A stretch of DNA of 64,000 bases from an uncultured Planctomycetales bacterium (GCA_964520655.1 CAZFNI010000012.1:1917-65916), one strand, 5' to 3'; positions 1-30,413 are shown, counted from the first letter of the stretch. Program-made: numbers and translations. The notes: generated by a model from the letters alone, not told the origin.

Positions 1-1397
1 GTCCCTATGCCTACATTATTGGGAACAACCATACCCCCAGGTGGGGCAGACAATGTTGCGTATTGCCCAACACTTATCCCTCCTAAAACCCCTAAAGCAC
101 TACCTGGAGAGATCGTCCCCACCCCTAAGTTTGAATTCTTTAGCATTGCACCTAACGGATGAAGGGTTGAAGTCTCATTAAAAATAATAACGGCATCAGT
201 AAGGCTGCCATTATTATTATTATCTCCCACAAGATTCACTGTGTTTCTTGCCCCCAGCAGCAAGTTTCCTGTTACAGGACTGTTGATATATTCGGCAGGA
301 TCATTAAAATAAATCGAATTCAGATCACGCACATATATATTTCCATTAACATCCATCTGTGCAGCCGGTGCCCAGGTCCCGATCCCCACATTGCCATTGG
401 TGACCACCAACCCGCCTTGCGGCGTCGTTGTCCCAATACCAACCTTATCCGACCCAGTCGTGTTATAAACCGTACCAGTACCCGTCGACCAACCAGAGGC
501 CGCCGATGACGATATTGTCCCTGGGGCCATCCATGTCCCGATACCAGTTGAGCCAGAAACCAACACATACCCCGCTGATGGATTTGAGGATAACTGCAAG
601 CCTGTCGTGCGCGTCGTCCCCTGCACATCCAAAGCCGTACCAGGTGCCATCGACCCGATCCCCACATTACCCTCTACGATCAGCCCGCCAGCAGGCGAGG
701 TGCTTTGTATAAACGATGAATTATAATTAGTCCCAATTCCAACGCCACCCCCGGCAACAACAAACATACTTAATGGATTTAATGTGCCGATGCCTACATT
801 CCCGCTGGTTATAATACCTCCCGTCGGAGATGTGCTTGTAGCGAAGGCACCAAAACTCCCTCCGCCCAATACTGATAAAACACTATTTGGATTTGATGTT
901 CCAACACCAACATTACCGTTAAGATCAATTCTCATTTTCTCAGTGGGGACAACATCAGAATTACTTGTACGCGTTGAAAATATTAAAAGCCCCTGATAGC
1001 CTCCGCCTGTAGCCTCACCACCCCCTATCCATGAATGAGGATACGAATAAGTACCCGTTGTTCCATTAAACCCCATATAAACAAATCCCTGTGTCCCACC
1101 CGGATTACCTGCGGCAGTATTTAAACGAATAACTTCTGAACTATTTGCGCCAATAGCAATATTTAATGGTCTATTGGCAACCCAAGTACCTATCCCAACG
1201 TTCCCAGTAAGAACAACCAACCCACCCTGCGGAGTCGTTGTCCCAATACCGATATTACCCGTAGCCCCTTCCACATGGAAATAGTTCCGGGCATTGTTCT
1301 TGATATTAAAATCTTTCGCGGCAAAAGCAGACATAGGGAAAACCCCTGTCAGGCTTAAGAGCATCAAGATCCTTATGTAACAAAAGAATTTTGTCAT
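1..1397 (-). CDS. Giant secreted glycine-rich repeat protein, second paralog, N-terminal ~465 aa (gene runs off the window's left edge)
   Basis: The reverse complement of 1395-1397 is ATG. The translation is MTKFFCYIRILMLLSLTGVFPMSAFA|AKDFNIKNN...GNIGIGTTTPQGGLVV.TGNVGIGT... This has the same signal-peptidase site and the same GNVGIGT repeat modules as the 3066-12659 protein. The frame stays open to position 1. It is absent from the ORF track, presumably because no stop codon falls inside the window. Confidence 0.6.
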   Translation of the reverse strand, partial: MTKFFCYIRILMLLSLTGVFPMSAFAAKDFNIKNNARNYFHVEGATGNIGIGTTTPQGGLVVLTGNVGIGTWVANRPLNIAIGANSSEVIRLNTAAGNPGGTQGFVYMGFNGTTGTYSYPHSWIGGGEATGGGYQGLLIFSTRTSNSDVVPTEKMRIDLNGNVGVGTSNPNSVLSVLGGGSFGAFATSTSPTGGIITSGNVGIGTLNPLSMFVVAGGGVGIGTNYNSSFIQSTSPAGGLIVEGNVGIGSMAPGTALDVQGTTRTTGLQLSSNPSAGYVLVSGSTGIGTWMAPGTISSSAASGWSTGTGTVYNTTGSDKVGIGTTTPQGGLVVTNGNVGIGTWAPAAQMDVNGNIYVRDLNSIYFNDPAEYINSPVTGNLLLGARNTVNLVGDNNNNGSLTDAVIIFNETSTLHPLGAMLKNSNLGVGTISPGSALGVLGGISVGQYATLSAPPGGMVVPNNVGIG

Positions 1398-1425
1398 TTC
1401 AGTTATCATTTACTAGAACTAACCA

Positions 1426-3081
1426 TCAATTCGCCCTTAAAATGATCAAGGGCTTGCTTGCCTCGTGACTGCGATTGGCTTTCAGTTTTAAAAAATACTG
1501 CAAATTATATTGGGCGGTCGTGTCGAAAGGATCGGCGCTGACCGACCGTTTAAAATATTCTTCTGCAGCAGACCAGTCATTTAATTTCAAACAAACAGCC
1601 GCCAGAGTATTTAATGCGTTTTTGGATCTAGGCTCAATGCGGACCGCTTTGGATAAATAAAGCCTGGCCAGCGTCAAATGCCCCTGGAATAACGCGATCG
1701 AGCCCAAATTGGTGTAAATGACATGGTCCCCATATTGGCCAGTGAGCGCAAGTCCGTACTGCTGCGAAGCATCATCAAACTGTCCTTTAACAAAATAGCC
1801 CCGGGCCAAATACTTATGAACTGTCTTGAGCAACGGGCTCTGTTCCTGCCAGTACGAGGCATATTTCATTTCATCATGCCACAGCTCGTTATAGCGCCAC
1901 GAGATCACTACCCATCCGGAGATCAAGACCACGACCATCACCAGTGACACATTGGCAAAAACACGACGAGCAGGCATGACGATCACATCCGCGAGGATCA
2001 TAAAAAATCCGATCGATGTCCACATCAGCCACTGGGGTGCAAACAGCAGCGCCTGACCGTTGAACAATCCGCCAATAGCCATCAATATCATCCCCAGAAA
2101 AAACCAGGAAAATCCTGCCAATATCCAGACTCTATGGCGAAAAAATCTCCAAAGCACCCAGAACATCACACCCCAGACAGCACAGCCTCCCAAAACCCAG
2201 ACCGCTGTCAGATCCCTAACAACAGGTTTCAGTGTCACCGCGACGATACCATCAGGGACAAAGAATCGGGACACATACCAGACCTGCATCGAAAAACAGG
2301 ACGCGGCATATTCCCACAAGCTCATATGGTAGCCATCGAACTTGGCAAAAATATTTCCGTACAGGCTGGCCCATTTCAATCTCAGCAGGAAATACGCAAA
2401 CGCCGTGATCCACAGAATTCTCTGCTCACGCCAGATCTGAGCAGCTTCTTTTTGCTGAACGAACAGCGACAACAAGGCCAGGGCCGGTGGGAATATAAAC
2501 GCATTCTCATGACAGAATAAAGCTCCCAGATAACACAAAAACACAAAGAATCTTTCCCTAAACGATGTCTTTCTAAAACACAGCACATGGGCACAAAACA
2601 GCAGCAATAGTAATTGCAGCGCGAATATCCCGGCAGATTTGTAATTGACGATAATACCGTTTAACGGATGAACCAGAACGAAAACAGGAACAAGTGTTGA
2701 GAACACAACATTTTTGGATAAGTGCAAAAGCAATGACCGTAGCGCCAGACACGCCGCGATGAACATCAACAGATAAAAAACATGGATGATGACAACATTG
2801 CCATTGCTGATGATATTGATCAACCGGGGAACGATCAAGGCCAGCGGCCGGTAATGATCATCTGTTTGCGGCCCTTCCAAATGCAAAACTTTTGCCTTAT
2901 CAGGAACAAGGTTCAACCATAAATTCCTGGGGTCGCGTGACGCGGCATCAGAGAATGTGTGGTCATCGAGCATGACAGGATGATTGAGCGCGTTAAAGAA
3001 TGTCAGCAGCCCCAACAGCAAGAACAAAATAAAAGCATTTCGTTGAAGTGACAGAAATTTGGCCATCATATCACCCACCAT
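1426..3081 (-). CDS. Polytopic membrane glycosyltransferase (PMT/ArnT-like GT-C fold, GT39/GT83-type) with C-terminal TPR repeats
   Basis: 551 aa. The N-terminus has a 'HPVMLDDHTF' acidic loop motif after TM1 and about 11 hydrophobic helices. The last ~150 aa are TPR-like (ARLYLSKAVRIEP..., AEEYFKRSVSADP...). The start overlaps the stop of the giant gene by 16 nt. Confidence 0.5.
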   Translation of the reverse strand: MVGDMMAKFLSLQRNAFILFLLLGLLTFFNALNHPVMLDDHTFSDAASRDPRNLWLNLVPDKAKVLHLEGPQTDDHYRPLALIVPRLINIISNGNVVIIHVFYLLMFIAACLALRSLLLHLSKNVVFSTLVPVFVLVHPLNGIIVNYKSAGIFALQLLLLLFCAHVLCFRKTSFRERFFVFLCYLGALFCHENAFIFPPALALLSLFVQQKEAAQIWREQRILWITAFAYFLLRLKWASLYGNIFAKFDGYHMSLWEYAASCFSMQVWYVSRFFVPDGIVAVTLKPVVRDLTAVWVLGGCAVWGVMFWVLWRFFRHRVWILAGFSWFFLGMILMAIGGLFNGQALLFAPQWLMWTSIGFFMILADVIVMPARRVFANVSLVMVVVLISGWVVISWRYNELWHDEMKYASYWQEQSPLLKTVHKYLARGYFVKGQFDDASQQYGLALTGQYGDHVIYTNLGSIALFQGHLTLARLYLSKAVRIEPRSKNALNTLAAVCLKLNDWSAAEEYFKRSVSADPFDTTAQYNLQYFLKLKANRSHEASKPLIILRAN

Positions 3082-6000
3082 TGTGTACCGTCGCAGACAA
3101 CGGTAAAAGACTGGTACTGAGTTGTTGTTGAGATCGTTGCGCTTCCATCAACCGTTTCCGCGGCGTTGCCGTCTAAGATCACCGCGTTGGCCGATGAGTC
3201 CGTTTTCTTGATATTATAAAGACGACCAGAAACCGTGCTTGCGGCCGGCAAAGTGATCGTGACCGCACCGCCCGAGGCGTCCACCAATATCACATAATCA
3301 TTGACAGTGGCGGTGTAATTCGCGGTCTTGCTGACAACCGCGACCCCCATTGAACCTTTGAGCTGTAACGAGGATTGGGCCGTCCACGTGCCGATACCGA
3401 CATTTCCTCCATAAAGGATGAACTTGTCCTGCGGCGTTGTCGTTCCAATACCGACATTGCCTTCCACCATCATGCCCCCTGTCGGAGCAGCCGAGATAAC
3501 GTAGGCGGAATTCTTCCCTGTGCCGATACCAACCCCTCCTGATACAGAGAGCCTGCTAGACGCCGTGACTGTTCCTATACCCACATTGCCCCCAATTGGA
3601 TTGATCAGAATATTACCTTTTGAAGCATCACTGGTTGAATCGAGCGTCAAATTGCCAGCCGCGTTATATGTTCCATACAACGTATTAAACATAGCCCGGC
3701 CAAGATAATCAACACTGCCTAAAAAGGAACCTGATGCCGTCCAGATACTCAGCACATTCTGCGTGCTTCCCGACGCCGCAACGATACTCACCGCCGATTT
3801 GGCAGTTGTCGTCGGTTTGATCGTAAAATACGATGGCATGGAACCAAATGCAGAAAGAATTGATGGTGAGCTCCCAAAAACCGTTTCCCCAACAACACTA
3901 AAGGGAACTTCATTCGTTAACCACGTTCCGATCCCTACATTTTCTCCCATGACAACCAGCCTGCCCTGCGGTATCGTCGTGCCAATACCGACATTACCTG
4001 CTGCAGTTACATTAACTAAAACATTCCCTGAAGAATCTTGTGCTTGTATCAAGTCCGCAGTTTGTGCCGCTGCTCCCCGAGATATCAACCCCACAACATT
4101 TGATGCTGTCGGGATCAAAGCAACTTGAGCAATATCCGTATAAAAATTACGGGCAAAATTCAAATGCCCTGTAGAGAGCTGGACCCAGTCATATCTACTG
4201 TCTGTTGAATTAAAGACAGCAAAGGCACCAGCTCCTGGAGCGGCAGATGAACCAGTTGATATAAAACTATACGTCTTGCCTGAGGATGCGGCTGCATTCA
4301 ACGAAACTCCTGCGCCTACAGTTGTTGATAGCCCATTTGCTTTCACATACAGAGGGCCAAGAGCGGCGTTTGTCGTATCCCCAACAACCACCATAGGAAA
4401 TTCTGGCGCGTAGCTTCCAACCCCCACGTTACCCTGAATGATCATGCCATTCCCTGGAGTGGTGTAATAGCCGGCATATAAAGTCCCGACCCCGACTCCA
4501 CCTTGAACATCTAGTTTATTCTTGGATAGCGTAGTCCCCAGACCAACATTACCCGAAGCTGTCACATTACTATTAACAATCCCATCAAAAGAACCGCCGT
4601 TATTGTATTGCAATTGCGATGATGAACCTCCCGGTGTTCCTCCCCCTGATGTTGACAACGTGCTTGCCGCCATCCAGGTACCGATACCCGTTGAACCCGA
4701 CACCAGCACATAACCCGATCCAGGATTACTGCGCACACGTAGTGTATTTGTATCAACGCCCGCCGCAGCCGTCCATGTCCCGACACCAAGATTACCCTTG
4801 CTGACAACTAAAGCGTCCTGCGGGGTTGTTGTACCAATGCCCACATTGCCGTTATCAAAAATGGATGAATTCCCAACCGTTGTCGATGATGCAGCCTTTT
4901 GCAAATAATTTGTTGTCATAGAAGTGTAAGACGGATATGTACTCGTATCGACGGAGAGAGTCCCATCGCCAGACCCAGTCTTGACAAAACCGTTGGACGT
5001 CAAATTTGTTATCTTAGGTGCATTGATCCCTGTCGTAAACTTACCGGTACCCACCACATCCAGACTCTGTGCCGGGTTTACGCTTCCAATACCGACATTC
5101 GTTGTAAAATAGGTATCGCTTGTTCCATACACATCAAGTAAAGCCTGCGGTGCCCAGGTGCCGATCCCCACATTCCCATTCGTGACAACAAATCCCCCCT
5201 GCGGCGTCGTTGTACCGATACCGACCTTGTCTGAACCCGTCGTGTTATAAACCGTTCCCGTCCCCGTCGACCAGCCGGAGGCCGCCCCACCCGTCGCCAG
5301 CGTTGACGCCGCCATCCATGTCCCGATACCTGTCGAGGACGAAACCAAGACACTCCCCGCCGCTGCATTGTTGCCGATCAACCGCAAGCCGGTTGTTTCC
5401 AAAGACGCGTTCGCCGCTGTCCAGGTGCCGATGCCGACATTTCCTCCAACAACGATAAACTTATCCTGAGGCGTGTGTGTTCCAATGCCCACATTACCTT
5501 CAATGATCATCCCCCCGGCAGGTGGTGATGTTGTTAGGAATCTATCGCCATTCTTTACTGTACCAACACCAACATTGCCCACGATCGACAATACAGCCTG
5601 CGGGGATGATGTTCCCAAAGCTACATTGCCGCCACCCACATACAATGCCGATTCTGACGACATCGTAAAAGTATTGATGCCAATATTACCTGTCAGCAGA
5701 AAATTGGTTTTATTGGCAGTGCTCCAGGCAAACGTTGGGGGGACTGATCCTGTAGTCGCACCGATCTGAAGCGTTGAATCCGAATTAGATGTTGCCGGAC
5801 CAATACCCCATGCGGCAGTCGATACCCAATTACCGATCATCTGTGGAAATCCCCCACTGCCTGGTCCGCCATAAGTACCGAAATACAGTTGATCAGGGGC
5901 GCCTGATACTGATCGGTTTGCCCGACCAACCTGTAAAGCAACCCCTGGTTTCCAGGTACCGATCCCAACAAATCCATTCATGACCGTCAGTCCAGCGTTG

Positions 6001-9000
6001 CTCGTCAGCACTGTACCGATCCCCACCCCTCCATTGGCGTCAACGATAAATGGCGCGCTGGTCGGACTCCCTACTTGGAAAACCCCTGCCGGAGCCCATG
6101 TCCCTATCCCCACATTCCCATTAGTCACAACCAACCCACCTTGAGGCGTTATTGTTCCAATACCCACATTATCGGATCCCGTCGTGTTATAAACCGTCCC
6201 AGTACCCGTCGACCAGCCTGAAGCCGCAGCCCCAGTTGCCAGGGTGGACGCCGCCATCCATGTACCGATACCTGTCGAGGACGAAACCAGAACACTCCCC
6301 GCCGATGCATTGTTGCCAATCAAACGTAATCCGGTTGTTTCAAGTGAAGCACTATCTGCCGTCCATGTCCCTATACCGACATTCCCGCCGGTCACGGACA
6401 ATCTAGCCTGCGGTGTTATCGTCCCAACACCCAAATTACCGCTGCCGTCAATAACAACATCAGAATTAGAAGTGGAGTTTGACCGTGAGAAATACAATTT
6501 CCCAGCCCCCACCGAGTTTGACGCGGTTGATGCCCCCATGTACCAGGTGTTAGACCCTGTTGCTCCCAGCTGAATGCTGATCATACTGCTTGGATTTAGG
6601 ATATTTAACCCTGTGCCGTCTCCACCCGAAGCTATGATGCGCTGGGTGCCGTTAACATCCAATGTTGTTCCCGGAGCATAGGAACCGATCCCCACATTAC
6701 CTTGAACGATCATCCCACCGCTTGGCGCGGCAGTCGTCAAATAAGGTGAATTGATCCCCGTCCCAACACCGACATTCCCCACAATAGCCATCTTATTTTT
6801 CGGCACAACCGTACCTACCCCCACATTACCATTAGCATCAAAAACAACTTTGTCTGTCAACGAGCCACTGGATGCTGTTGAAAAAACAAGATTGGTGGAG
6901 TTGGCCGCTGTGTATGTGGTTCTTAATGTCGTTAATGGGCTATAATTTTGCCCTAACGCGCCAGCAAAAACGAAACTAATCCCCTGCGAATCACCAACGG
7001 TTGATCTGGACGTGATCATGGATATCGCTGTGCCGTTGGCCGCATCATTCTGGATCTCAACAGTTCTAGCTGATGGCGATGTTCCCGTTGATGTTGTCCA
7101 AAATGCCGCTGCTACGGGTTCACCGCCCACAGCATTAGCCGTAGTAGTATTCTTGAACAACGCCATAGTGTAGGGAACTGCCGACGTCCCAACGCCCACA
7201 TTACCCCCAGAAGTAATAAGCAGTGGCGATGAATCGTTAGGACCACTGTCATTGATGCGCAGCAATTCTTGCGCGCCGTCACCAACAACCTCCAGTTTTG
7301 AATGCGTCGTCCCAGTACCAATACCAACATTCCCCAAACGAACACTCAACGCATTATCCGGCGCCCACGTGCCGATACCCACATTCCCGTTAGTGACGAC
7401 CAATCCGCCTTGCGGCGTTATTGTTCCAATACCAATATTATCTGACCCTGTCGTGTTATAGACTGTCCCGGTTCCTGTCGACCATCCGCTGGCCGCCCCA
7501 GAAGTTGCCAACGTCGATGCCGCCATCCATGTCCCGATACCCGTCGATGACGACACAAGAACACTCCCCGCCGCTGCCCCGTTACCGATCAATCGCAGGC
7601 CGGTTGTTTCCAAAGAGGCATTCGCCGCCGTCCATGTGCCGATCCCGACATTGCCCCCCAAAACAGCGAGCTGTGCCTGCGGTGTCGTTGTCCCTAAGCC
7701 CACATTGCCCTGGACGATCATCCCTCCGCTTGGGGCTGCACTGGTTACAAATGAAGAATTTATTCCAGTGCCAATGCCAACGCCTCCAACAGTAGACAAT
7801 TTATTAAATGGTGTGAATGTCCCAACACCCAAATTACCTGATTCATCGATCGTGATTTTTGCTGCATCCGAAACACCGATCATCACACCAAATACCCGAT
7901 TCACGATACCCCGGCCAAAAACAAAACCATAATGACCATTACTTGCAGCTGGAACACTGTTGCCTATACCGATCGCAACACCATTATCATTGTTTATTGT
8001 ATTGCTAGAACCAATAGCGATCGCTCCGGAAGAAGCATTTGTGTTATTGCTATAACCAAAAACCATGGACTGCCAACCGTTAGTATTTGAATACCCAAGA
8101 CTGATCCCATTGGAACCAGAACCGATGTTTACCCCGCCGGTTGATTGCTCCCCTGTGATTGCGATCGTACTGCTTTTAACTTCCAATGTCGCAATGGGAG
8201 CCCACGTTCCAATCCCCACATTCCCATTCATCACCACAAGCCCGCCCTCTGGAGTAGTTGTTCCAACACCCACCTTATCACTACCCGTTGTGTTATAGAC
8301 TATCCCTGTACCCGTCGACCAACCGGACGCCGCACCGGATGTCGCCAGCGTAGATGCTGCCATCCATGTCCCAATACCAGTCGATGATGACACAAGCACG
8401 CTTCCTGCCGCGGCACCGTTGCCGATCAGCCGCAAGCCGGTTGTTTCCAAAGAAGTATTAGCTGCGGTCCACGTACCAATACCCACATTACCCCCGACAA
8501 CGATCAACTTATCTTGCGGCGTATGTGTTCCAATTCCCACATTACCTTCAATGATCATTCCACCTGCTGGAGGTGATGTTGTCAGGAATCGATCCCCATT
8601 CTTAACAGTGCCTACACCAACATTGCCAACGATCGACAATACAGCCTGCGGCGATGTCGTTCCGATCGCTAGATTCCCTGAGGCTATATACAATGCCGAT
8701 TCTTTTGACATCGCAAAAGTATTGATCCCAATATTACCCGTCAACATTAAATTCGTAGGATAAGTATTAGACCATGTAAATGGAGCAGAAACGGGTGTGG
8801 ACGTACCTCCAATTCTTAACGTAAAATCAGTATTAATCGCTGATGCAGGCCCGATCCCCCATGCTCCAGAACTCATCCAATTCCCAACCATCTGAGGATA
8901 ACCGGCTGTGTTACTATATGAAGCAAACCATAACTGGTCCGGAGATCCGCTAACAATTTGATTATATTTACCAAACTGCATCGCTACATCAGGCTTCCAT

Positions 9001-21539: not shown

Positions 21540-23060
21540 TCATCCTTTTCGCGGCGTTATAAAAATGATCAGCTCTGTTTTATTGTCCCGACGCACTTCA
21601 TATTCAAATAACCTTCCCAAGAACGGAACTTTAGAGAGCAGTGGCACATTCTGTTTGGAATGCTCTTTAGCTGATGTGATAAGCCCACCGATCGCTACAG
21701 TTTGCCCCTCTTTTAACTTAACCATGGTATTAAGTGATTTTGTTGTTGTTTGGGGAGCTTCTATCAGACTATTACCCGAGACAATGGTTCGAATATTATC
21801 AATGCTTGTCACAACAGGGGTCACTGACAGAAAAATATCATCACCTGCGATATTTGCCAGTAGTCGCATTGTTACCCCTTCCTGAACTTGGGAGGTTGAT
21901 ACGGAAGTGACAGAACCTGTCTGAGTTGTTTCTATCGTTGACCGATCCACATAACTTTGGGTTGAACCAACCTGAATAACTGCAACCTGATTATTTAAGA
22001 TCTTCACCCTTGGCTGAGACACCACTTCCACTTCCCCCTGCTTAGATAACGCATCGATTGCCATTTTAAAACCATTTGACGATAGACCTGATCCCTCTTT
22101 GCCCCCATCCATATTAAATCTGAGGAAATTTCCACTGCTAAAATTGTTTGAGGCAAAATTGCTGACGAGAGCAATACTATTTAATGTTTTCAGATCACCT
22201 GCCAGTACATTCCAATCAATACCAAAACGATTGTCATCATTTAATCTCACTTCCACAACCTTCACATCCACCTCAATCTGGATAGAGACACGGGCATTTA
22301 GATCCTCAAAATACCTCCTTAATCTCTCTAATTTCACGGGCGTATCCGTTACAACAACCATCCCCGCTGGTTTATTAAGTGATATTTTGGCTGAATCAGA
22401 AGTGAGACCTTTCACATTGGCCAGAACATCATCCCAAAACGAAAGCCCAGCGTTCTGGCTGCTGACAACGATCTTTGTCCCTAGCTTCACCTGCTGATTC
22501 TGACTAGAACCATTCTGATTCTCCCCTGACCGCACAAAAGACTCGTTGCTGGTTGTATCATCAAAACTCTGAACGATCGGCGGTATTAACACCCTAAAAA
22601 TCTGTGTCTGTTCCGCTAAAACAGTCATTTGCCTATCTTCAATCTTGTATCCATATCCCAAAGAATAAAGAATTGTATTAAATACACTGGCGATCGTCAT
22701 ATTTTGCGCATCAATATTGGTCTTTTTGTCCTCAACACCTGGCCCCAACAACACATTAATACCAATAGATTGTGCTAGAGGTTTTAATACACTTGTTAAA
22801 GTCACATCATGGGCATTTATAGATACAACCTTCATCCATTCGTTATTTTCTGTATCAGATATAATTGAAACATCTTTTGAAAAACCATCATCGATCAATA
22901 GCGCAGGTTTCTGCGTGTGGGCCGTTTGCTTGCGCCATTCCTCATTGATTATTTCTACCCTTGCCTTGGTACTCAACGGTTCCGGAAGCCCCCAGATGAT
23001 TCGGCACACTGGTAATGTCAGCAACAGTGTTAAAATCATGATCTTCTGAATTTGGTACAT
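21540..23060 (-). CDS. Secretin (PilQ/GspD/PilN-R64 family outer-membrane channel)
   Basis: 506 aa with a signal peptide. The C-terminus has the canonical secretin domain: SQPRVKILNNQVAVIQVG...GVTMRLLANI...VTPVV...TMVKLKEGQTVAIGGLI...NVPLLSKVPFLGRLFEYEVRRDNKTELIIFITPR. Confidence 0.8.
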   Translation of the reverse strand: MYQIQKIMILTLLLTLPVCRIIWGLPEPLSTKARVEIINEEWRKQTAHTQKPALLIDDGFSKDVSIISDTENNEWMKVVSINAHDVTLTSVLKPLAQSIGINVLLGPGVEDKKTNIDAQNMTIASVFNTILYSLGYGYKIEDRQMTVLAEQTQIFRVLIPPIVQSFDDTTSNESFVRSGENQNGSSQNQQVKLGTKIVVSSQNAGLSFWDDVLANVKGLTSDSAKISLNKPAGMVVVTDTPVKLERLRRYFEDLNARVSIQIEVDVKVVEVRLNDDNRFGIDWNVLAGDLKTLNSIALVSNFASNNFSSGNFLRFNMDGGKEGSGLSSNGFKMAIDALSKQGEVEVVSQPRVKILNNQVAVIQVGSTQSYVDRSTIETTQTGSVTSVSTSQVQEGVTMRLLANIAGDDIFLSVTPVVTSIDNIRTIVSGNSLIEAPQTTTKSLNTMVKLKEGQTVAIGGLITSAKEHSKQNVPLLSKVPFLGRLFEYEVRRDNKTELIIFITPRKG

Positions 23061-23400
23061 ATTTCTCCTTTTGTTGGATTACAAAATCCTCAGATTCTTT
23101 GATCCATTCTCCTGGCTTGATCATGACCAGTTCTTTATGTTCTGGAATAAATGCCCCCTGATCAATATGCCCAGGAATACTGATCTCTTGAACGAGAGGA
23201 GCACTCCAATGATAATCTGGCATAACCTTATAATGACCTTCCTCAAGTATCTGTGATACTTGCTGTTTTACAGCATGTTGATAACTCTTAACATTCATAC
23301 TCTGTTCTGAGAATCTTGCTGTAGCACATCCCGCAAACATCAAAATGAATATCCCCCAGAAATTATTGCAGCCCATATGGATACTCCTTGGCACATACAT
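22942..23400 (-). CDS. Small lipoprotein (PilL-like position, immediately upstream of the secretin)
   Basis: 152 aa. It has a probable lipobox, ILMFAGC. Its 3' end overlaps the secretin start by ~100 nt, so either boundary may be different. Confidence 0.4.
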   Translation of the reverse strand: MYVPRSIHMGCNNFWGIFILMFAGCATARFSEQSMNVKSYQHAVKQQVSQILEEGHYKVMPDYHWSAPLVQEISIPGHIDQGAFIPEHKELVMIKPGEWIKESEDFVIQQKEKYVPNSEDHDFNTVADITSVPNHLGASGTVEYQGKGRNNQ

Positions 23401-25819
23401 TTATGGCCTCAATAAGATCACCGTTCAAAGATTCCACCTTCTGCCACAAATAATCATTATTCCTTGGTTCTGAATTAGCTACCCAATACAAGAATGGATC
23501 AGGAACAAGACGAATGACGCCAGTAGAATTCTCCGACATCACTAAACACTCAGAATATTGGCCTTTAATTGTTTTAATGGATTTAAGTAATTGGATTTTT
23601 TCATCATCGAACGACAATGTCTCTTTAAGCAAATCAATAACTGCTGGATCTTGTTTGAGAAAGATCTTATTGGCCGCATTCGCAATGATCGCCATCCCGC
23701 TTTCTACTCGTGTTAGATCAGCAATCTCCTGTGTTATCGCTATGGTTGAGCAGCGGTATTTTCGGAATGTTTTAAAAGCATTGGTGATAAAATCCGACGT
23801 GTTCTTGACTTTTAATAATGACCACGCCTCATCTATCAATAAATATTTTCGTTTGATCCTCATTGAATCACTGGACACAAAATTTGTCATAAAGAACATT
23901 AGATTCAATAAAACGGCTAACTGCAAATCAGGATATGAACTCAAATTGGCCAATTCAAATACCACAAAACGGGTATTTATCGTGAATTGATTTGGACCGT
24001 CAAAAAATCGGCCATACGGCCCCTTGTTTGTAAACGGGGTCAATCGCAATGCCAGTGTCGGCCCCATCAATGAATTTATACCGCAGCGTTCATTAAAATA
24101 ACTGTCATTAAGAACATTCGTTACATCACTTAAGAACACCTCTGATTTCTCCTTATTATTCTTATAGGCCGTCATAATTGCTTGCTGCAATAACCCTTCC
24201 TCTTCCCGGCTCAAACGGTATCGGTCATCACCACCGCTGGCCATTTGCGATAGCAACGATAAAAGGAAAGATATATTATCTGGCGTGGGTTCATGAGCAA
24301 ATGGGTTGATTGTGACAGGATCGTTCAAATAAAGACTAATGTATTGGCCATTTAAAACCTGGCAAAGCTTCTTATAAGAATCACCCTTATCCAAAACAAA
24401 AAAATGACTGCCTAAACGATCTGCCTGAAGTATAAAATCATTGATAAAAAAACTTTTTCCGGATCCAGATGCTCCAACAACAATTCCGTGCGGGTTAATA
24501 TTCGAATCAAACATATCAAAGAAAACAACTTCATCCCTGCGGTTAGAATACATTTGTGCCGGAGTTGATGTTCCTTGAAATGCACCGAAGATCGGAAGCA
24601 TATCTGCGACATTAATTGACAACAATCTCCTGGATCTTCTAATAAAATTCTCATAATAGGGATCAAAATTAAGCGGCAAACACGTCAGGAATAATGATGC
24701 CCCTATCAGGTCCTCCTTTATCCCGCCGCATTGATATCGGTTTAGACCATTAATGATCTGATCACCAAGATTTTCAACCTCCTCTGCACTTTCCCCAAAT
24801 ACAACCCAATGGAACCTGGCGTTAATTATCTTTTGTCCTCCCTGATACATAGCCCTAACAACTTCATCCAGTTCCTCCTTTTTCGCAACCTCCTCAACCG
24901 ACTTGTCTCCCAACCAATTCTCCTTATGCATGAATGCAAAGTCCTTCTGGATCTTGATCCGCCTTAAAGCATCTTGAGGATCGGCTGACGTCATATTCAC
25001 CACAAAAAGCATAGACTTGGCCTGGTCAAGCAAACTGAATGGTTGAGCCCCTTGAAATTCCTTAGTAAACATGCCGATCGTTGTATGGGCAGGCATTTCT
25101 TTTAAGCTCACAACCCTCATGTATTGGCCCTCGAAATTAAAACCCTTACCACTTGCTTGCGGTGAATTAAAAAGAACCTGGTCTCTTATATTCAGATTAT
25201 TTTCCAGCCTGACATCTGGCACGCTCATGGAACGTTTGGGATTCATTAATTGATATAATAATTGTGTTAGCTCCTGCTCTAAGACAGGCTTAACAGATAC
25301 GCCGGAAGTCTTGAGTAGCCCTCCCAAAAGAGAAGTATGTTGCTCAAATACCTTTTTATGCTCACACAACTCATTTTCAATCCCTTGTGAATGCTTTTTC
25401 CACACAGGGAAGAATCTGATCGTGATATACACATCAATTGCTCTCGTAAAACAGCGCTTCCCATTGTTTTTCTGACGTTTGGTTGCATAAAAAGATGTTG
25501 TCGTTACACCTTGAGCATTCTCTTGGAATTGATCATATTGATCATTCTTGTCCTTACTATTAACATTGACATTCATGATCATTTGACAGGCTAAACGGTC
25601 ATGCGGGAGCCTGGTCAAAACAGTCTGCCAATGCTGCACCAGAATATTCATATCCCTTTGTGTTCTTCCTTCTGAATCAACAAGATTTATCTTCCAAACT
25701 TTTCCCATACTCCCATCAGATAATAAACAAACGTCATCGCAAAACTCAACATACGGCAAAAGATCGACAAAACTCATGCCTTCAGAGAACAATGCCTCTA
25801 TATTCTTGTAACGCAACAC
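23363..25819 (-). CDS. traC: TraC/VirB4-family T4SS ATPase
   Basis: 818 aa. The Walker A is GIVVGASGSGKSFFIND. The Walker B / 'DEAW' motif is RKYLLIDEAWSLL. The size and domain order are VirB4-like. Confidence 0.8.
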   Translation of the reverse strand: MLRYKNIEALFSEGMSFVDLLPYVEFCDDVCLLSDGSMGKVWKINLVDSEGRTQRDMNILVQHWQTVLTRLPHDRLACQMIMNVNVNSKDKNDQYDQFQENAQGVTTTSFYATKRQKNNGKRCFTRAIDVYITIRFFPVWKKHSQGIENELCEHKKVFEQHTSLLGGLLKTSGVSVKPVLEQELTQLLYQLMNPKRSMSVPDVRLENNLNIRDQVLFNSPQASGKGFNFEGQYMRVVSLKEMPAHTTIGMFTKEFQGAQPFSLLDQAKSMLFVVNMTSADPQDALRRIKIQKDFAFMHKENWLGDKSVEEVAKKEELDEVVRAMYQGGQKIINARFHWVVFGESAEEVENLGDQIINGLNRYQCGGIKEDLIGASLFLTCLPLNFDPYYENFIRRSRRLLSINVADMLPIFGAFQGTSTPAQMYSNRRDEVVFFDMFDSNINPHGIVVGASGSGKSFFINDFILQADRLGSHFFVLDKGDSYKKLCQVLNGQYISLYLNDPVTINPFAHEPTPDNISFLLSLLSQMASGGDDRYRLSREEEGLLQQAIMTAYKNNKEKSEVFLSDVTNVLNDSYFNERCGINSLMGPTLALRLTPFTNKGPYGRFFDGPNQFTINTRFVVFELANLSSYPDLQLAVLLNLMFFMTNFVSSDSMRIKRKYLLIDEAWSLLKVKNTSDFITNAFKTFRKYRCSTIAITQEIADLTRVESGMAIIANAANKIFLKQDPAVIDLLKETLSFDDEKIQLLKSIKTIKGQYSECLVMSENSTGVIRLVPDPFLYWVANSEPRNNDYLWQKVESLNGDLIEAINVCAKEYPYGLQ

Positions 25820-26226
25820 TATTTAATCTCCTCTTCTACTTCTTCTTTTTTGGGGATAACGACCGAAGAGCTTGACCTTTGCACTTCTTGATCATCGAAC
25901 CACCTTGGCCCCTGGACCATCACATAGACCCAATGTCCAGATACTAAAACGCCTGTATCATCAACAGAACGGTGATTGGGAACCCAAACTTTCTTTACTA
26001 CAGGGGGTTTGATAACAGGAACATAAGGTTTCACATACCCAAACACTTTTTGCTCCCTAAAACGCTCTGCCACAAATTTTTCTACATCTTCCTTAGCTTC
26101 TCGCATGCTATGATGATACATATCTTCCATAGGCACTCTGCTGTTAGAACTCTGCCTGATCTGCCGATGCCCGCAGCCATTAATTAAGAACATCAATGTG
26201 ATTAACATCACGACGTAATAGACCAT
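25819..26226 (-). CDS. TraV-like (VirB7-like) outer-membrane lipoprotein
   Basis: 135 aa. It has a lipobox, LINGC. It is small and Pro/Val-rich, and lies between the TraB and TraC homologues as in F-like tra operons. Confidence 0.35.
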   Translation of the reverse strand: MVYYVVMLITLMFLINGCGHRQIRQSSNSRVPMEDMYHHSMREAKEDVEKFVAERFREQKVFGYVKPYVPVIKPPVVKKVWVPNHRSVDDTGVLVSGHWVYVMVQGPRWFDDQEVQRSSSSVVIPKKEEVEEEIK

Positions 26227-27337
26227 CGATCATCACTCCTTTTTGAACGACGAAATTAATACTAGTGCCACTGGGCACATGCACAGCAGGTATGATATTT
26301 TGCGTTTGTTTATCGTAATACTGCGACAACTCAGCGGCGCTTTTGGAAAGTCCGGAAAACATGGCGTATTTACCAGCATCCCCCGTGACATTACGTTCAA
26401 CATTACCAAATCGTCCAGATACAGATGTCTGCTCGCTATCAGCCAACGCAGATGACCCTCCAGCCATAAATCCGCCCATAAAAGCCAGTGCCAAAGCTTT
26501 TCCTGTACTGTGCACCAACTGTCCATGTATCCCTAACTCTCCATGACGGTCCGTTACATAACCAATCTCCTGTTCTTTCTCAAAAACCTTACCGTCAGGT
26601 TGAACATAAGAAATCGCAATGATCTGGATTAAGGCACGTTGAGAATTGATGTCCCCTATAGCCTTCCCCAAAGCAAATGCACCCTTTAACGGTATACGCG
26701 CATTGTTGGGCCCGTAAAATGCCTCATCAAGCGTGATCAATACTGGTAATGGACTATTGACATCAACTGACGCATATACTCCTGTTAACAATGTACCTTT
26801 ACAGAAAGAACCGATCGGTAAATACACATCATACTTTTTATTAATAACCCCTCTTACCGGAGCAATCTTCAATTCATAAGATGATTCTTTTGAAATATCA
26901 GAAGAAATTGAAAGCTTACCCAGATCTTCTTTAATTGTTGACAATGTGCCACTGATGTTGAGCTGTTCTTTTTTGTATTGCTCATCTGCCTGTTTTATAC
27001 CTTTGATCTGTTCCTCCATCTCTTTTATCCTGTCTTCAAAATCATAATAATTCTTTTGGAGGCCTTTCATAACTTCCAAACGTTCTGTGTCTCCAACTTT
27101 GACACCTTCATCATCAATGCGCAGTTGCGTACCCTGCTGTTTCGACTTTTCTAAAGAATGTTCATCGCTAGACCATATATAAGATCCAACAACCACTATC
27201 AACAAGACCACACCATAAATGATTAGCGGATTCTTATGCTGAATCGACTTGAGTATTTCAAATAGTTCGTTCATTTGCCTGTATGATAAATATTGTTGTG
27301 TGATCTCTTGCTTGACCCTCTGGCGCAAGGACATCAT
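26180..27337 (-). CDS. traB: TraB/VirB10-family T4SS protein
   Basis: 385 aa. The order is N-terminal TM, coiled coil, then a C-terminal beta-barrel domain. VirB10-like motifs are present: GTLLTGVYASVDVNSPLPV, IPLKGAFALGKA and IPAVHVPSGTSINFVV. Confidence 0.65.
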   Translation of the reverse strand: MMSLRQRVKQEITQQYLSYRQMNELFEILKSIQHKNPLIIYGVVLLIVVVGSYIWSSDEHSLEKSKQQGTQLRIDDEGVKVGDTERLEVMKGLQKNYYDFEDRIKEMEEQIKGIKQADEQYKKEQLNISGTLSTIKEDLGKLSISSDISKESSYELKIAPVRGVINKKYDVYLPIGSFCKGTLLTGVYASVDVNSPLPVLITLDEAFYGPNNARIPLKGAFALGKAIGDINSQRALIQIIAISYVQPDGKVFEKEQEIGYVTDRHGELGIHGQLVHSTGKALALAFMGGFMAGGSSALADSEQTSVSGRFGNVERNVTGDAGKYAMFSGLSKSAAELSQYYDKQTQNIIPAVHVPSGTSINFVVQKGVMIDGLLRRDVNHIDVLN

Positions 27338-27914
27338 CCAAGGATGCAGCGGCTATGATATTCTCAAGACTTAATTGATCTAGAGGGACATTGACCCTAC
27401 GATCAGATTTATTCCTTGCCGTTATGCCATACACCCTAAATTGAGGAAAATCATACGCCAACTCAAAATCTAAAGTAATGTGTGAGTTTTCAAGTACTAT
27501 TTGGCGCTGAACCTTGATCTTTACTGCCCCGGCTGGCTCATTTCCCTGCAGCAAAATTTTCATGATATCGATTGCACTAATCCCGCTCTGATATTTACTA
27601 GAGTTCACACTATTGCCATTGACAACCACATTAAGATCATGCTGTGTAGAAACCTTTAAATTGATCGGATAAGATTTTCCTGATACTCCTTTAACAAAGA
27701 CGTCTGAGGGCGCTTCCGTTTTAGGCAAAATAAAAAGGGAATTATCCATGGCCTCAACTAGTAGGGAATCACTCGCCCCTCCCTTGATTACTTGGGCAAT
27801 ATTCTCTGGAAATGAGACCTCCGAAACTTTACCAACTTCTACATGAACACTTGTTACTTCTTCAGCAAATACTGTAGTAGCCAACATTAAAATAGCGATA
27901 AGGAGTGCATTCAT
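27258..27914 (-). CDS. TraK-like (VirB9-like) periplasmic/OM core protein
   Basis: 218 aa with a signal peptide and a predicted beta-rich fold. It is positioned between the TraE and TraB homologues. Confidence 0.4.
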   Translation of the reverse strand: MNALLIAILMLATTVFAEEVTSVHVEVGKVSEVSFPENIAQVIKGGASDSLLVEAMDNSLFILPKTEAPSDVFVKGVSGKSYPINLKVSTQHDLNVVVNGNSVNSSKYQSGISAIDIMKILLQGNEPAGAVKIKVQRQIVLENSHITLDFELAYDFPQFRVYGITARNKSDRRVNVPLDQLSLENIIAAASLDDVLAPEGQARDHTTIFIIQANERTI

Positions 27915-28567
27915 ATACTTAGCTCCTGATCAATTGACGCCACGATCAAACCCAAAGGATTCTGTTCCGTTGGAGCCACTACATTGATAAGAATCTTAAA
28001 GGTTATATCCTGCTCTTTTACCATTTGCTTCCCCATGAATAACGTCTTTTTAGTCTTGATGGTCACTTTATAATCACCTCTTTCTTTCTTCACCGAAGGC
28101 TCATCAATGACAGTCAATAATGAAGATATTTCACTTTGTTTTATCTCCTCTAGATCTTTACTTAAGCGCGTGCGCGTTTTTGACAATACATATGGCGACA
28201 TAAATCGCTGCGCGCGTGCATAAGCATTTGACGCCGTCACCGGATTGAAATTATTCCAATCCATGATCCATTTGGACACAAAGGTCGATACAACCATAGA
28301 CATATCCGATATTGGCAAAGCCACCCCTGCTTGATATACATTAGGAACATAATAAATAGATTTAGGCTTAACCACTGTCCACATAATGATCCCCGCAAAA
28401 GCCAAACTGACAATCCCAAGCAATAGACAAACGTAAAGCATCCGCTGATACATCAATTCTGATCTTGTCCATCGTTCCACAAACTGAGTACTTTTAGAAT
28501 GTTGTGCTTGCATATGATCCATAATGAGAAACTCCCCTAGGTGACGGAGGCAAACCTGGAAGTCCAA
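27911..28567 (-). CDS. TraE-like (VirB8-like) bitopic T4SS protein (probable true start at an internal Met, ~180 aa)
   Basis: It has a single N-terminal TM segment (LYVCLLLGIVSLAFAGIIMW) followed by a periplasmic domain. It is F-TraE-sized when started at the internal Met. The upstream extension overlaps traL. Confidence 0.45.
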   Translation of the reverse strand: MDFQVCLRHLGEFLIMDHMQAQHSKSTQFVERWTRSELMYQRMLYVCLLLGIVSLAFAGIIMWTVVKPKSIYYVPNVYQAGVALPISDMSMVVSTFVSKWIMDWNNFNPVTASNAYARAQRFMSPYVLSKTRTRLSKDLEEIKQSEISSLLTVIDEPSVKKERGDYKVTIKTKKTLFMGKQMVKEQDITFKILINVVAPTEQNPLGLIVASIDQELSI

Positions 28568-28784
28568 GGCCCTGAGAATATAACCAATGCATCAAATAGC
28601 CAGGCGGTTTTCCACTTTTCAATCTGGATATAAGTATCCAACATATGATCCCTATCGCTCCGGGAACATAAGGTTCAAACAACAAACCGCCAATACCAAT
28701 GACCAATACCACCGCCGCAAGGTCCTCTTGTTCTAGTCCAAAGAATGTTTGTGGCTTATCTATTGTTCGATAGCATGTGTGCAT
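28494..28784 (-). CDS. traL: TraL-like (VirB3-like) T4SS protein
   Basis: 96 aa. YRTIDKPQTFFGLEQEDLAAVVLVIGIGGLL parallels the F TraL YRFPKTLD..IIGLPLDEAIPAAVLLL. KSGKPPGYLMHWLY parallels KKGRSPYWLYNYCY. Confidence 0.55.
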   Translation of the reverse strand: MHTCYRTIDKPQTFFGLEQEDLAAVVLVIGIGGLLFEPYVPGAIGIICWILISRLKSGKPPGYLMHWLYSQGLGLPGLPPSPRGVSHYGSYASTTF

Positions 28785-28787
28785 GTA

Positions 28788-29069
28788 TTAGCCAGTCGCT
28801 ACCCTTTCTAATAAGAGCGGCAAAAATAACAACATTACAAAAGCTACAGCACTAGCAATTGCCAGCTTATATCTTCCTCTTAGCAAAGACGCTACACCTG
28901 ACAGCAGTATCACCACGCCTAACAATTTTGCGATAGGCCCCTTAAGCATCAATACAGACTTCTCTGAAAATTCTTGTACTGTTTTCTCTGGATCATCTGC
29001 CCACACAAATGAAACAAAATCAATTAGATATAAATGCATCAGTACCACCATCTTCATCAAAGATCGCAT
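28788..29069 (-). CDS. TraA/VirB2-like conjugative-type pilin precursor
   Basis: 93 aa. It has a leader peptide, then two hydrophobic helices separated by a basic loop (LRGRYK). This is the F-pilin/TrbC architecture. It is the first small gene after the polytopic membrane protein. Confidence 0.45.
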   Translation of the reverse strand: MRSLMKMVVLMHLYLIDFVSFVWADDPEKTVQEFSEKSVLMLKGPIAKLLGVVILLSGVASLLRGRYKLAIASAVAFVMLLFLPLLLERVATG

Positions 29070-29070
29070 C

Positions 29071-30261
29071 TTAACCTCCTTTAAATATAAGCATTCTGGT
29101 TAATAATACCTGGAACAACAACGATATTAAAAATGCGCCCACAAAGAATGGTTGCTCCCATGCCCACGAAACTTCTTGTTTAAGGACTACTTGTGTTTGA
29201 GCTTGGGCGACCAAGATTGCAGTATAATGACTTATCGCCGCACTCAGTACCCATGATTTGATCCAGATAAGATTTCTGCAGTATTCTCGGAACATCCCGG
29301 GTTGAACGTCTATAAATAATGACAGGACTACAAAAGGGAAGAGAATAGATAAGGTCATCTGTGCAACGCCATGAATATAGGGCAATGCTCGCATTGACCA
29401 GTAAAGCAATTTTGAACAAATCTTTTCTATTCCCTGAGAACTCTTAAGAATATTGTGTTGGGCAAATGACGCCATAATACATTGTTTGACGTCGTTGTCA
29501 TTGTGAGAATCAAGGAATGGTAAGAATACAGCCCTTGCGTCGCGTCTTAAATATTGATTGGACTCCAAATACTTATCACATAATGCACTTAAACTTTTTG
29601 AACCAACCCACTGTTTTTCGGCATACGCAGGATAAAGTTCAAGAATATTTTTATGTCCTGGCCCAATAATCCCAAGAGTTTGATTGGAATTCTCAATCTT
29701 ATAGCGCGATAACACAGGAGCGTATTGCTCATCAATAAAAGACTTAAATCGGTAAGAAAGACCCGAATCCAAAAATCCCACTCTGCTCGCTTCTCTTATA
29801 TAGGCGCTTTGGGTTTCAATGAAATATCCCTTGGGTAGAAACTTCGCTTCTACTGACATGGACTTATCCATCAGGCTAATAATGGCAAAGAATACTTGAT
29901 CTACAGCTCGGCTAATAAACGTAAAAAACACAGGCACTCGATCAATACTTGTTATTGTGTTCTTTAAAGACTTGCTACTACGAAAAGATTTATCGTTAAG
30001 CTCCTGATAGCTACTGATGTCTTTCTGTTCAAAGGATGGCAAAAGCATTAGAACAAGCACAATGATTATAGAGAAGAAAGAAATAAGTAAGTTGAAATGA
30101 CCCGTTCGAATATACCGCCACAGGCTCAGCAAAAAAACTGAACCACCTACCACTAAACCTATCCCGCTCCTCCTGAAAATGTAGTCCATCAGGATATGGG
30201 TAAAGTTAAGGCCAGCTAAATTTAACGCAGCATCTACTGAAGTTAAACCAAACAAATTCAC
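29071..30261 (-). CDS. Polytopic inner-membrane protein, TraG-N/VirB6-like candidate. It is the first gene of the operon.
   Basis: 396 aa with about 7 hydrophobic helices and a central periplasmic loop. No ATPase motifs are present. The assignment is by topology and context only. Confidence 0.3.
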   Translation of the reverse strand: MNLFGLTSVDAALNLAGLNFTHILMDYIFRRSGIGLVVGGSVFLLSLWRYIRTGHFNLLISFFSIIIVLVLMLLPSFEQKDISSYQELNDKSFRSSKSLKNTITSIDRVPVFFTFISRAVDQVFFAIISLMDKSMSVEAKFLPKGYFIETQSAYIREASRVGFLDSGLSYRFKSFIDEQYAPVLSRYKIENSNQTLGIIGPGHKNILELYPAYAEKQWVGSKSLSALCDKYLESNQYLRRDARAVFLPFLDSHNDNDVKQCIMASFAQHNILKSSQGIEKICSKLLYWSMRALPYIHGVAQMTLSILFPFVVLSLFIDVQPGMFREYCRNLIWIKSWVLSAAISHYTAILVAQAQTQVVLKQEVSWAWEQPFFVGAFLISLLFQVLLTRMLIFKGG

Positions 30262-30413
30262 AAACGAGGAAAAACTATTGGGGGAGGTTATTACACTATC
30301 TGACTTAGATTCGTTGGGAGAAACGAAATATTAACTAATAAGCAAATTATATTGATTATTACACAAATGTCAAGAAATTTAATATCATTTGCGCAAAATA
30401 AAAAGAAGCCTTT
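30262..30413 (-). promoter_or_regulatory. AT-rich 152-nt intergenic region, probable promoter of the T4SS/T4P super-operon
   Basis: This is the only sizeable gap upstream of the 21-gene block. It is AT-rich (…aaatttaatatcatttgcgcaaaataaaaag…). Confidence 0.3.

Follow-up and report, generated by a model that had tools for sequence, protein, structure and literature searches.

Giant fibre genes beside a type IVb pilus nested in an F-type secretion operon: probably two independent units

On a 64-kb stretch of DNA from an uncultured bacterium (CAZFNI010000012.1:1917-65916; below, the window), 24 minus-strand genes run back to back from 30261 down to 1. They lead from a type IV secretion system (T4SS) with an enclosed type IV pilus (T4P) module, through a YraN nuclease gene, to genes for giant surface fibres, the final one of which (fibre 2) is truncated by the window edge. 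The locus raises the question of whether machine and fibres make up one functional island, as the original prediction proposed. We consider it probable that they are two independent units, which are neighbours in this lineage alone. Unit 1 (30373-12758, 21 genes) encodes an F-type T4SS with type IVb pilus genes between traC and traU, and unit 2 (12659-1) comprises fibre 1, a 551-amino-acid (aa) TPR membrane protein and fibre 2. Coordinates refer to the whole window; L001 to L046 are labels of relatives' loci, and P0008 and P0015 are fibre homologues.

That all genes from 30261 to 1 lie on the minus strand, as had been predicted, was borne out by the open reading frame (ORF) list, the translations and the gap table. 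The minus strand also holds 49 of the 52 genes called in the window (91% of coding bases), and the guanine-cytosine (GC) skew is negative throughout. Given this background, the chance of a 24-gene same-strand run is ~0.94^24, or ~0.2. Because 49 of 52 genes share the strand, co-orientation carries little information; alone, it is no more than chance and weak evidence for one island. Packing was also examined. Junctions within the run are overlaps or gaps of at most 17 nt, with the sole exception of 98 nt at 12660-12757. Two gaps above 20 nt had been predicted; the 98-nt gap stands, whereas the second (1399-1425), 27 nt as first called, narrows to 16 nt with the upstream in-frame ATG at 1409 as start codon. 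Gaps above 20 nt thus number 1-2 in the 23 junctions of the run versus ~6-7 in 22 junctions elsewhere in the window. The somewhat tighter packing is real, and fits two long operons rather than one. The lesson is that neighbouring position on the same strand, on a contig with 94% of its genes on one strand, is not evidence of a functional island, and that the fibres are to be treated as a family of their own.

Gene identities were assigned by Pfam, NCBIfam and Protein Data Bank (PDB) searches, with bit scores set against curated cutoffs. The features of unit 1 are as follows (subfamily A of the relatives is described below).

30346-30373, minus strand: sigma-70 consensus promoter TTGACA-16-TATAAT (12/12), in the 152-nt gap before the TraG_N-like gene
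29071-30261, minus strand: TraG_N-like polytopic membrane protein (VirB6-like), first operon gene; Pfam TraG_N E=6.4e-8, 32.4 bits, just below the 36.1 cutoff
28788-29069, minus strand: T4SS pilin, TrbC/VirB2-like, 93 aa; weak Pfam TrbC match, E=0.0017
28494-28784, minus strand: TraL; Pfam 31.3 bits (cutoff 24.4), NCBIfam 32.2 bits (cutoff 30.95)
27911-28567, minus strand: TraE-like; weak DUF2895 and TIGR02761 TraE matches
27258-27914, minus strand: TraK/VirB9-like; weak matches to DUF3438, TIGR03749, VirB9 and TraK_Ftype; conserved position
26180-27337, minus strand: TraB/VirB10 (TrbI domain); Pfam TrbI 75.7 bits, NCBIfam F-type TraB E=2e-21
25819-26226, minus strand: TraV lipoprotein; Pfam TraV 24.2 bits (cutoff 21), lipobox LINGC
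23363-25819, minus strand: TraC/VirB4 ATPase; Pfam P-loop_TraG 139.9 bits and TraC_F_IV 44.3 bits, both above cutoff
22942-23400, minus strand: small conserved lipoprotein, 152 aa, between TraC and the secretin; lipobox FAGC, no family match
21540-23060, minus strand: secretin, MshL/PilN-like; Pfam Secretin 119 bits, NCBIfam MshL 216.7 bits (below cutoff), PilN type IVB 136.6 bits (cutoff 287.65)
19421-21538, minus strand: three conserved genes (384, 167 and 176 aa); no Pfam or NCBIfam match, place between secretin and ATPase kept in relatives
17812-19419, minus strand: T2SSE-family pilus extension ATPase; Pfam T2SSE 317 bits, Walker A intact
16619-17815, minus strand: T2SSF/PilC-type platform protein; Pfam T2SSF 126.6 bits
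16152-16601, minus strand: PilS-like major type IV pilin; weak PilS and Bundlin matches, N_methyl, class III signal peptide G/AFSLVELAI
15307-16170, minus strand: PilV-like minor pilin; N_methyl and Collar matches, PDB tail-fibre proteins 9qgo_A and 9nxk_A at E ~2e-11
14555-15310, minus strand: TraU; Pfam TraU 59.8 bits (cutoff 26.5)
14250-14696, minus strand: short TraF-like remnant, 148-aa ORF; tblastn to relatives' longer ORFs
13123-14253, minus strand: divergent TraH-like protein, 376 aa; positional orthologues in subfamily A match Pfam TraH at 48.8 bits (cutoff 25)
12758-13126, minus strand: YraN/UPF0102, PD-(D/E)xK nuclease fold, last operon gene; Pfam UPF0102 105.9 bits, NCBIfam YraN NF009154 123.7 bits (cutoff 109)

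The F-type character of the T4SS was judged from both the window and its relatives. TraL, TrbI and TraV score above their Pfam cutoffs; TraE, TraK and the pilin are weak in the window, and TraE and TrbC are matched by relatives' orthologues (PF05309 TraE in L039, L040, L043 and L045; TrbC in L043). Orthologues of the TraG_N-like gene in L039, L040 and L043 likewise match TraG_N, and the L001 pilin is 60% identical to that of the window. The best NCBIfam match of TraC is TraC-F-type (369 bits, below the equivalog cutoff of 567), and its Walker A motif is intact (GASGSGKS). The 152-aa lipoprotein has orthologues in every full-length locus. At the other end of the operon, the 376-aa TraH-like protein has no direct family match in Pfam or NCBIfam, and the TraF-like remnant falls, by tblastn, within ~240-aa ORFs of L006, L011, L012 and L022 that match TraF/Thioredoxin_2; translation probably begins further in, for a product of ~105-116 aa like those of L001 and L002. 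Because orthologues in these distant loci match TraF and TraH, the tail of the operon reads TraU-TraF-TraH as in the F plasmid. TraW, TraN and F-type TrbC were not detected among the window ORFs, and a Pfam search up to E=10 gave nothing usable for the 376-, 148-, 384-, 167-, 176- and 152-aa proteins. YraN retains its PD-(D/E)xK motif (EIDIIA...VFVEVK), and in the window, L001 and L002 its start codon and the stop codon of the TraH-like gene share 4 nt (ATGA). By these sequence features, YraN is a clade-specific last gene of the operon, predicted to be translationally coupled.

Nested between traC and traU is the pilus module. The 384-, 167- and 176-aa proteins are presumed pilus alignment or assembly proteins. 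Residues 5-58 of the ATPase form an MshEN-type cyclic di-GMP (c-di-GMP)-binding domain (NF053729, 44.6 bits; cutoff 38), and c-di-GMP may therefore gate pilus extension. The prepilin N-methylation motif is present in both PilS and PilV; the PilS N-terminal domain scores 20.9 bits against a cutoff of 22, and PilS is 71-79% identical to its orthologues in L001 and L002. PilV is a fusion of a type IV prepilin N-terminus with a phage tail-fibre tip (collar/HxH motifs, residues 132-287), which is kept in L001 and L002 and in many metagenome loci at 37-46% identity. From this architecture, PilV is the presumed tip adhesin. No Peptidase_A24 match, and hence no prepilin peptidase, was found among the window ORFs.

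Relatives of the machine were gathered by a genome-collection scan with the ATPase (one relative), a word-index search with the 376-aa protein (two matches), a metagenome scan and a TraC search. In L001, from the genome scan, every gene from the pilin to YraN occurs in the same order, and likewise in L001/L005; L002, reached via the 376-aa protein, keeps the order from TraC to YraN. The metagenome scan, run with a concatenated PilS, PilV, TraU and TraH-like alignment, gave 34 loci, and the gene order is shared by ~15 loci having the whole or part of the cluster. The order TraC-secretin-ATPase-PilS-PilV-TraU-TraF-TraH is also found in L006, L011, L012, L014, L022, L039 and L045/46. These loci constitute subfamily A; between their TraG_N and pilin genes lie one for a TraD-like coupling protein and a weakly MobC-like one. 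The TraD-like and MobC-like genes are missing from the clusters of subfamily B (the window, L001/L005, L002, L040 and L043), and L040 and L043 also lack PilV, TraU, TraF, TraH and YraN at that position. Because the Walker motifs are intact and the ORFs are intact at 35-79% identity across three genomes, the sequences argue that the cluster is functional rather than decaying.

Some loci carry rearrangements of their own. In the subfamily of L039, L045 and L046, the weak MobC 'replication-relaxation' match adjoins the TraD-like gene. L002, the closest relative, has a DUF559/Vsr-like endonuclease gene (7243-7611) between the platform gene and PilS. L043 has GT2, radical-SAM and PIN genes between TraB and TraV, and its secretin (12847-14383) is seemingly split into a 407-aa ORF with no Pfam match and a 109-aa ORF with the Secretin domain, which could be a frameshift or a pseudogene.

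The fibres do not follow this conserved cluster in relatives. Downstream DNA is visible in ten cluster loci, where other genes and no fibre are found. L001/L005 has HicA/HicB and a FadL-like outer-membrane protein after the cluster; L002 has GC-rich hairpins and then another ORF; L040 and L043 have waaA-lpxK. In subfamily A the slot holds restriction-modification and defence genes (L006 15994-21019, L011 15410-20352, L012 16660-20952, L022 17722-23144), including Vsr, Dcm and HATPase, type III restriction-modification, D12 methylase, and patatin with HsdM, and resembles a defence-island hotspot. No fibre or TPR-membrane match was found in the 34 metagenome loci, and no synteny with the window was found in the stretch beyond the L005 cluster.

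Seen from the fibres, the picture is the same: five fibre loci of other genomes have no T4SS or T4P gene within 10 kb. Fibre homologues stand beside mreD-PBP2 (L003, L042) or rpsB-tsf-pyrH-frr (L004), or belong to fibre/Laminin_G_3 clusters with TPR proteins on their flanks (L041, the P0015 locus). One of them, P0008 (L003), is 75% identical to the window fibre over the last 130 aa. L001 and L003 lie on one 420-kb contig, on which the fibre cluster begins ~55 kb downstream of YraN on the same strand (contig coordinates). Because named homologues span candidate phyla radiation (CPR) bacteria, Elusimicrobiota, Margulisbacteria and Flavobacteriales, the fibre family is much broader than the cluster. 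No protein of Candidatus Velamenicoccus archaeovorus is among the named fibre homologues, although its genome has the cluster. Co-localisation in relatives, on which the original prediction had made its island depend, therefore fails in ten cluster loci and five fibre loci, and in the L001/L003 genome the two modules are ~55 kb apart.

The features of unit 2 and its border are:

12660-12757, minus strand: intergenic gap of 98 nt, 24% GC, the border of the two units; weak promoter-like site TTGCTA-16-AATAAT at 12731-12704
3066-12659, minus strand: giant fibre 1, 3197 aa; Sec signal peptide, 44 GNVGIGT-type motifs, eight ~130-aa conserved modules, C-terminal knob
1426-3081, minus strand: polytopic membrane protein, 551 aa, with C-terminal TPR repeats; its first 16 nt overlap the fibre 1 gene
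1-1409, minus strand: fibre 2, paralogue of fibre 1, at least 469 aa; Sec signal peptide, N-terminal region and modules common to fibre 1 (families D2 and D5)

Fibre 1 is rich in Gly (17.5%), Thr (12.6%) and Ser (10.4%) and has no Pfam or NCBIfam match. Its 95 C-terminal residues, modelled on an alignment of 20 C-termini, reached a predicted local distance difference test (pLDDT) score >90. Foldseek searches with this knob returned phage tail-fibre, tailspike and baseplate domains, including T4 gp10 (root-mean-square deviation (rmsd) 2.8 A over 98 columns), KP1 baseplate and CBA120 TSP4, with up to 45% identity and an rmsd of 0.7 A to uncultured Caudovirales proteins and 185 BFVD matches at E <=1e-3. 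Because the knob matches phage tail-fibre and baseplate domains, 'fibre' is a fair description. The repeat region, modelled as a monomer, reached a pLDDT of 42-57. The fibres are Sec-exported, probably trimeric, phage-tail-fibre-like giant adhesins, trimerisation being part of what we infer. At the DNA level, fibres 1 and 2 (window 1-12700) have modules of 164-300 nt in common, which are 73-82% identical and present in 6-13 copies. Repetition of this kind may disrupt assembly from short reads; relatives' fibre genes lie at contig ends in L004, L042 and the P0015 locus. In relatives, Laminin_G_3 proteins of ~240-260 aa directly follow fibre genes (L003 15721-16482 and 24627-25415; L041 8884-9648; the P0015 locus). 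The window has no Laminin_G_3 protein after the fibre, and the TPR membrane protein occupies that slot.

The 551-aa protein had been called a glycosyltransferase, which no search supports: Pfam, NCBIfam and PDB gave TPR matches alone, and Mannosyl_trans4 (E=0.052) is non-significant. A 'DD' was seen by eye in the first predicted loop, and an AlphaFold2 single-sequence model (pLDDT 48.5) was left unused.

Sites matching at least 11/12 positions of the sigma-70 consensus number two in the entire window, and one of them, 30373-30346, heads unit 1. Between it and the first gene runs a leader of ~85 nt in which CCCCAA motifs recur. Promoter and leader (~85-110 nt, with two or three (T)CCCCAA) are kept before the first cluster gene of the window (30262-30373), L040 (4590-4738) and L043 (2314-2425), and the leader may be regulatory. 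For the fibre genes, a promoter of their own in the 98-nt gap is plausible; those of close relatives are likewise preceded by AT-rich DNA, and the aligned upstream regions, being weakly similar, are no more than suggestive of a common promoter. The other strong site in the window, TTGAAA-16-TATAAT (11/12; 41783-41810, minus strand), heads a seven-gene MoxR-DUF58-BatA/B/TPR/BatD aerotolerance-type operon (34838-41744, minus strand).

Taken with the tight packing and the ATGA overlap of YraN in three genomes, the promoter at 30373-30346 supports the predicted coupling of T4SS, T4P and YraN. The proposed island thus survives in part: T4SS, pilus and YraN hold together as one unit by synteny, promoter and ATGA overlap, whereas the fibres with the 551-aa protein are not adjacent to it in any relative.

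Several observations weigh against two independent units. Both modules were found on the same contig in one relative genome only, the remaining fibre and cluster loci being from separate contigs. The promoter-like site in the 98-nt gap matches just 9/12 positions, no terminator hairpin was found in that gap after YraN, and transcription of unit 1 may read through into the fibre genes. In both L040 and L043, homologues of the 551-aa protein (28% identity, E=2e-62) immediately precede the T4SS/T4P cluster. This is the sole comparative hint tying the two units, and suggests that this family may be linked to the machine. In addition, two preprints report that Omnitrophota giant genes tend to come after secretion or pilus loci (10.1101/2023.11.21.568195; 10.64898/2026.06.07.730766).

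These observations bear on the rival that survives best, namely one co-regulated contact-dependent attachment or attack system of T4SS/T4P, YraN, fibres and TPR protein, in which the secretin and pilus, or the T4SS, would export or display Sec-delivered fibres. The units are 98 nt apart on the same strand, the fibres have Sec signal peptides and still need an outer-membrane route, and the PilV tip and the fibre knob are both phage receptor-binding-type domains. The type IVb pilus systems TCP of Vibrio cholerae and CFA/III of enterotoxigenic Escherichia coli (ETEC) secrete the operon-encoded TcpF and CofJ, which also counts in its favour. The adjacency, however, is unique to this contig among the ten cluster and five fibre loci, the relative having both modules keeps them ~55 kb apart, the fibre family reaches groups from CPR bacteria to Flavobacteriales without a named V. 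archaeovorus member, and co-orientation equals the window background. Three points leave a single system a minority probability, namely the possible read-through, the modules of phage receptor-binding type in both units and the recurrence of the TPR-membrane family near the cluster, but we think it unlikely.

A second rival, which we rate as improbable, is that the region is a decayed or domesticated integrative conjugative element (ICE), with the T4SS/T4P as its mating module and the fibres in the cargo slot that holds defence genes elsewhere. Subfamily A favours this idea. Besides TraD-like and MobC-like genes and the restriction-modification and defence islands after the cluster, it has operon-internal insertions in L039, L045 and L046 (Imm_superinfect, the superinfection-immunity gene, NYN, ParE and a GNAT/TacA toxin-antitoxin pair). 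The post-cluster slot is variable in every genome examined, and the T4SS half has a lower GC content (0.39-0.41) than its flanks (0.43-0.52). In the window, on the other hand, no ORF has a coupling protein, relaxase or integrase domain, and tblastn with the V. archaeovorus TraD-like protein returned nothing. No att-like repeat was found, the longest match between the two bounding gaps being 7 nt. No tRNA flanks the region: the one tRNA of the window, tRNA-Arg(CCT) (50732-50808, plus strand), is 20 kb away within a 339-nt gap between minus-strand genes, with no integrase or repeat seen near it. Rfam returned no RNA family in the window. A full ICE was rejected for want of an integrase, relaxase or coupling protein in the window.

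The surroundings also speak against an ICE. Upstream of 30261, minus-strand genes resume after the 152-nt gap:

30414-31046, minus strand: TPR protein, upstream of the 152-nt gap
30946-32835, minus strand: MsbA-like ABC transporter, upstream of the TPR gene

The rest of the window is housekeeping (MsbA-like transporter, LpxB, Bat/MoxR, MetH, FeoAB, PPDK, a sigma-70 factor and a tRNA synthetase). Lipid-A genes lie around the cluster in three genomes, with MsbA-like and LpxB upstream in the window (30946-34866) and waaA-lpxK downstream in L040 (20529-22532) and L043 (21039-22505). Fibre orthologues elsewhere sit in core chromosomal contexts (mreD-PBP2, rpsB-tsf). This gene context suggests a fixed chromosomal site of the cluster in this clade rather than a mobile element.

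Least probable is that the cluster and its terminal YraN serve, like ComB, to take up or release DNA instead of being a cell-to-cell transfer device: type IV pili commonly mediate DNA uptake, the cluster is without coupling protein or relaxase, and the coupled YraN has an intact PD-(D/E)xK motif, but YraN joins the cluster in the three closest genomes only, no ComEC, ComEA or DprA gene is nearby, and the PilV tip looks like a binder of cell-surface receptors rather than of DNA.

We return to two independent units and to what the first of them may do. By its sequence, the operon combines known kinds of system in a new arrangement, a type IVb pilus nested in an F-type T4SS. Like the window, IncI plasmids (R64, TP114) and PAPI-1/SPI-7 pair a conjugation-type T4SS with a type IVb pilus made up of a secretin, an ATPase of PilQ type, a platform protein of PilR type, and PilS and PilV pilins (PilS-like and PilV-like in the window); their thin pilus and T4SS cooperate in mating, and the PilV C-terminus determines the cell surface bound, a presumed further likeness (PMC9045228, PMC5297154). 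Unlike these systems, the window T4SS is F-type, not MPF_I or MPF_G; its pilus genes lie inside the T4SS operon between traC and traU, not in a separate operon; and it has no shufflon, Rci recombinase or in-cluster prepilin peptidase. In place of a shufflon-encoded segment, its PilV tip is a phage tail-fibre collar/HxH domain, and its clade has no in-cluster coupling protein or relaxase and a chromosomal context. With the F plasmid (MPF_F) it shares the TraL-TraE-TraK-TraB-TraV-TraC order and the F-specific TraU, together with TraF and TraH as assigned through orthologues and TraG_N just under its cutoff. It differs in that every NCBIfam score but that of TraL is below the curated cutoff; TraW, TraN and TrbC are undetected, TraF is truncated, TraG_N comes first and not last, and the window has neither TraD nor TraI. 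Among plasmids, the best TraC relatives are at 22-29% identity, and no nested pilus genes were found in the two plasmids inspected, pQBR103 and Myxococcus pYRE.

Bartonella Trw, Bordetella Ptl and Helicobacter pylori ComB are coupling-protein-less T4SSs repurposed for adhesion or periplasmic export. The window system resembles them in being a conserved, intact, conjugation-derived T4SS without coupling protein and relaxase (here within the 64-kb window), but those systems belong to the P type (VirB-like) and enclose no type IV pilus. The fibres, for their part, resemble phage tail fibres, tailspikes and T4 gp10, in that the ~95-aa knob superposes on these; the PilV tip likewise matches solved tail-fibre tips. 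In contrast to phage fibres, the window proteins are cellular, Sec-exported and up to 3197 aa; they lack an S74 chaperone domain, and their neighbourhood holds no structural genes of phages. A published Omnitrophota giant-gene locus has a giant gene of at least 25 kb after gspD/E/F, rcpC and Rotamase_2, then pilZ (West-Roberts et al. 2023, 10.1101/2023.11.21.568195). It is similar in having a large surface protein downstream of a secretin/GspE/GspF-type locus, in the lineage concerned, the window being probably from an Omnitrophota relative, and in its proposed role in prey attachment. The window differs from it in having an F-type T4SS with a type IVb pilus, a fibre gene of 9.6 kb and an adjacency that is not conserved; a T2SS/Tad-like giant-gene locus of that kind was rejected as an identity for the region, which has no RcpC, rotamase or PilZ.

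In the proposed mechanism, the c-di-GMP-responsive ATPase would extend the PilS pilus, and the phage tail-fibre receptor-binding tip on PilV would take hold of a second cell at its surface. Next, the cell-to-cell conduit would be formed by the F-type envelope complex (TraK/B/V core, TraC motor, TraL/E/G_N and TraU/F/H). We infer this order of events (pilus grips, then T4SS docks) by analogy with IncI and PAPI-1 mating pili, and any transferred cargo is likewise conjectural. Subfamily A, having kept TraD-like and MobC-like genes, looks from its gene content like a DNA-conjugation module. The window clade, which would have lost both from a cluster now placed among lipid-A genes, may instead have been repurposed for adhesion or export of periplasmic substrates, or may use a coupling protein encoded elsewhere.

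The distribution of TraC points to the lineage concerned. The TraC search gave 269 proteins at E <1e-30, and the named relatives at 40-57% identity are all Candidatus Omnitrophica/Omnitrophota. Among them is Ca. Velamenicoccus archaeovorus LiM, with TraC at 49% identity and the same cluster (L039, CP019384 602710-625244). The lineage is probably Omnitrophota or a close relative in the Planctomycetes-Verrucomicrobia-Chlamydiae (PVC) group; the submitters' label of the closest genome, 'uncultured Planctomycetales', speaks against this. The earlier guess of an epibiotic or predatory small-celled lineage fits these relatives, V. archaeovorus being a predator. Published work on Omnitrophota treats T4a pili, Tad pili and giant proteins, and no description of a type IVb pilus nested in an F-type T4SS operon was found in the Omnitrophota literature searched. 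A broader proposal, which we hold as doubtful, is that the machine is a phylum-wide host- or prey-contact organelle of ultra-small Omnitrophota, in which the pilus, with its phage-receptor-binding tip, catches the target cell and the T4SS is the conduit; in the coupling-protein-less clade the machine would then be domesticated and work with the neighbouring giant adhesins as a single apparatus for attachment or attack, their adjacency being a recent consolidation.

Omnitrophota are uncultivated, ultra-small and probably predatory or parasitic, and the operon bears on the question of their attachment to other cells and exploitation of them. It is also present in V. archaeovorus, the one cultivated predator. 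The nested operon yields testable candidates for the contact machinery, namely a PilV with a phage receptor-binding tip, a predicted c-di-GMP-gated ATPase, and clades with and without a coupling protein.

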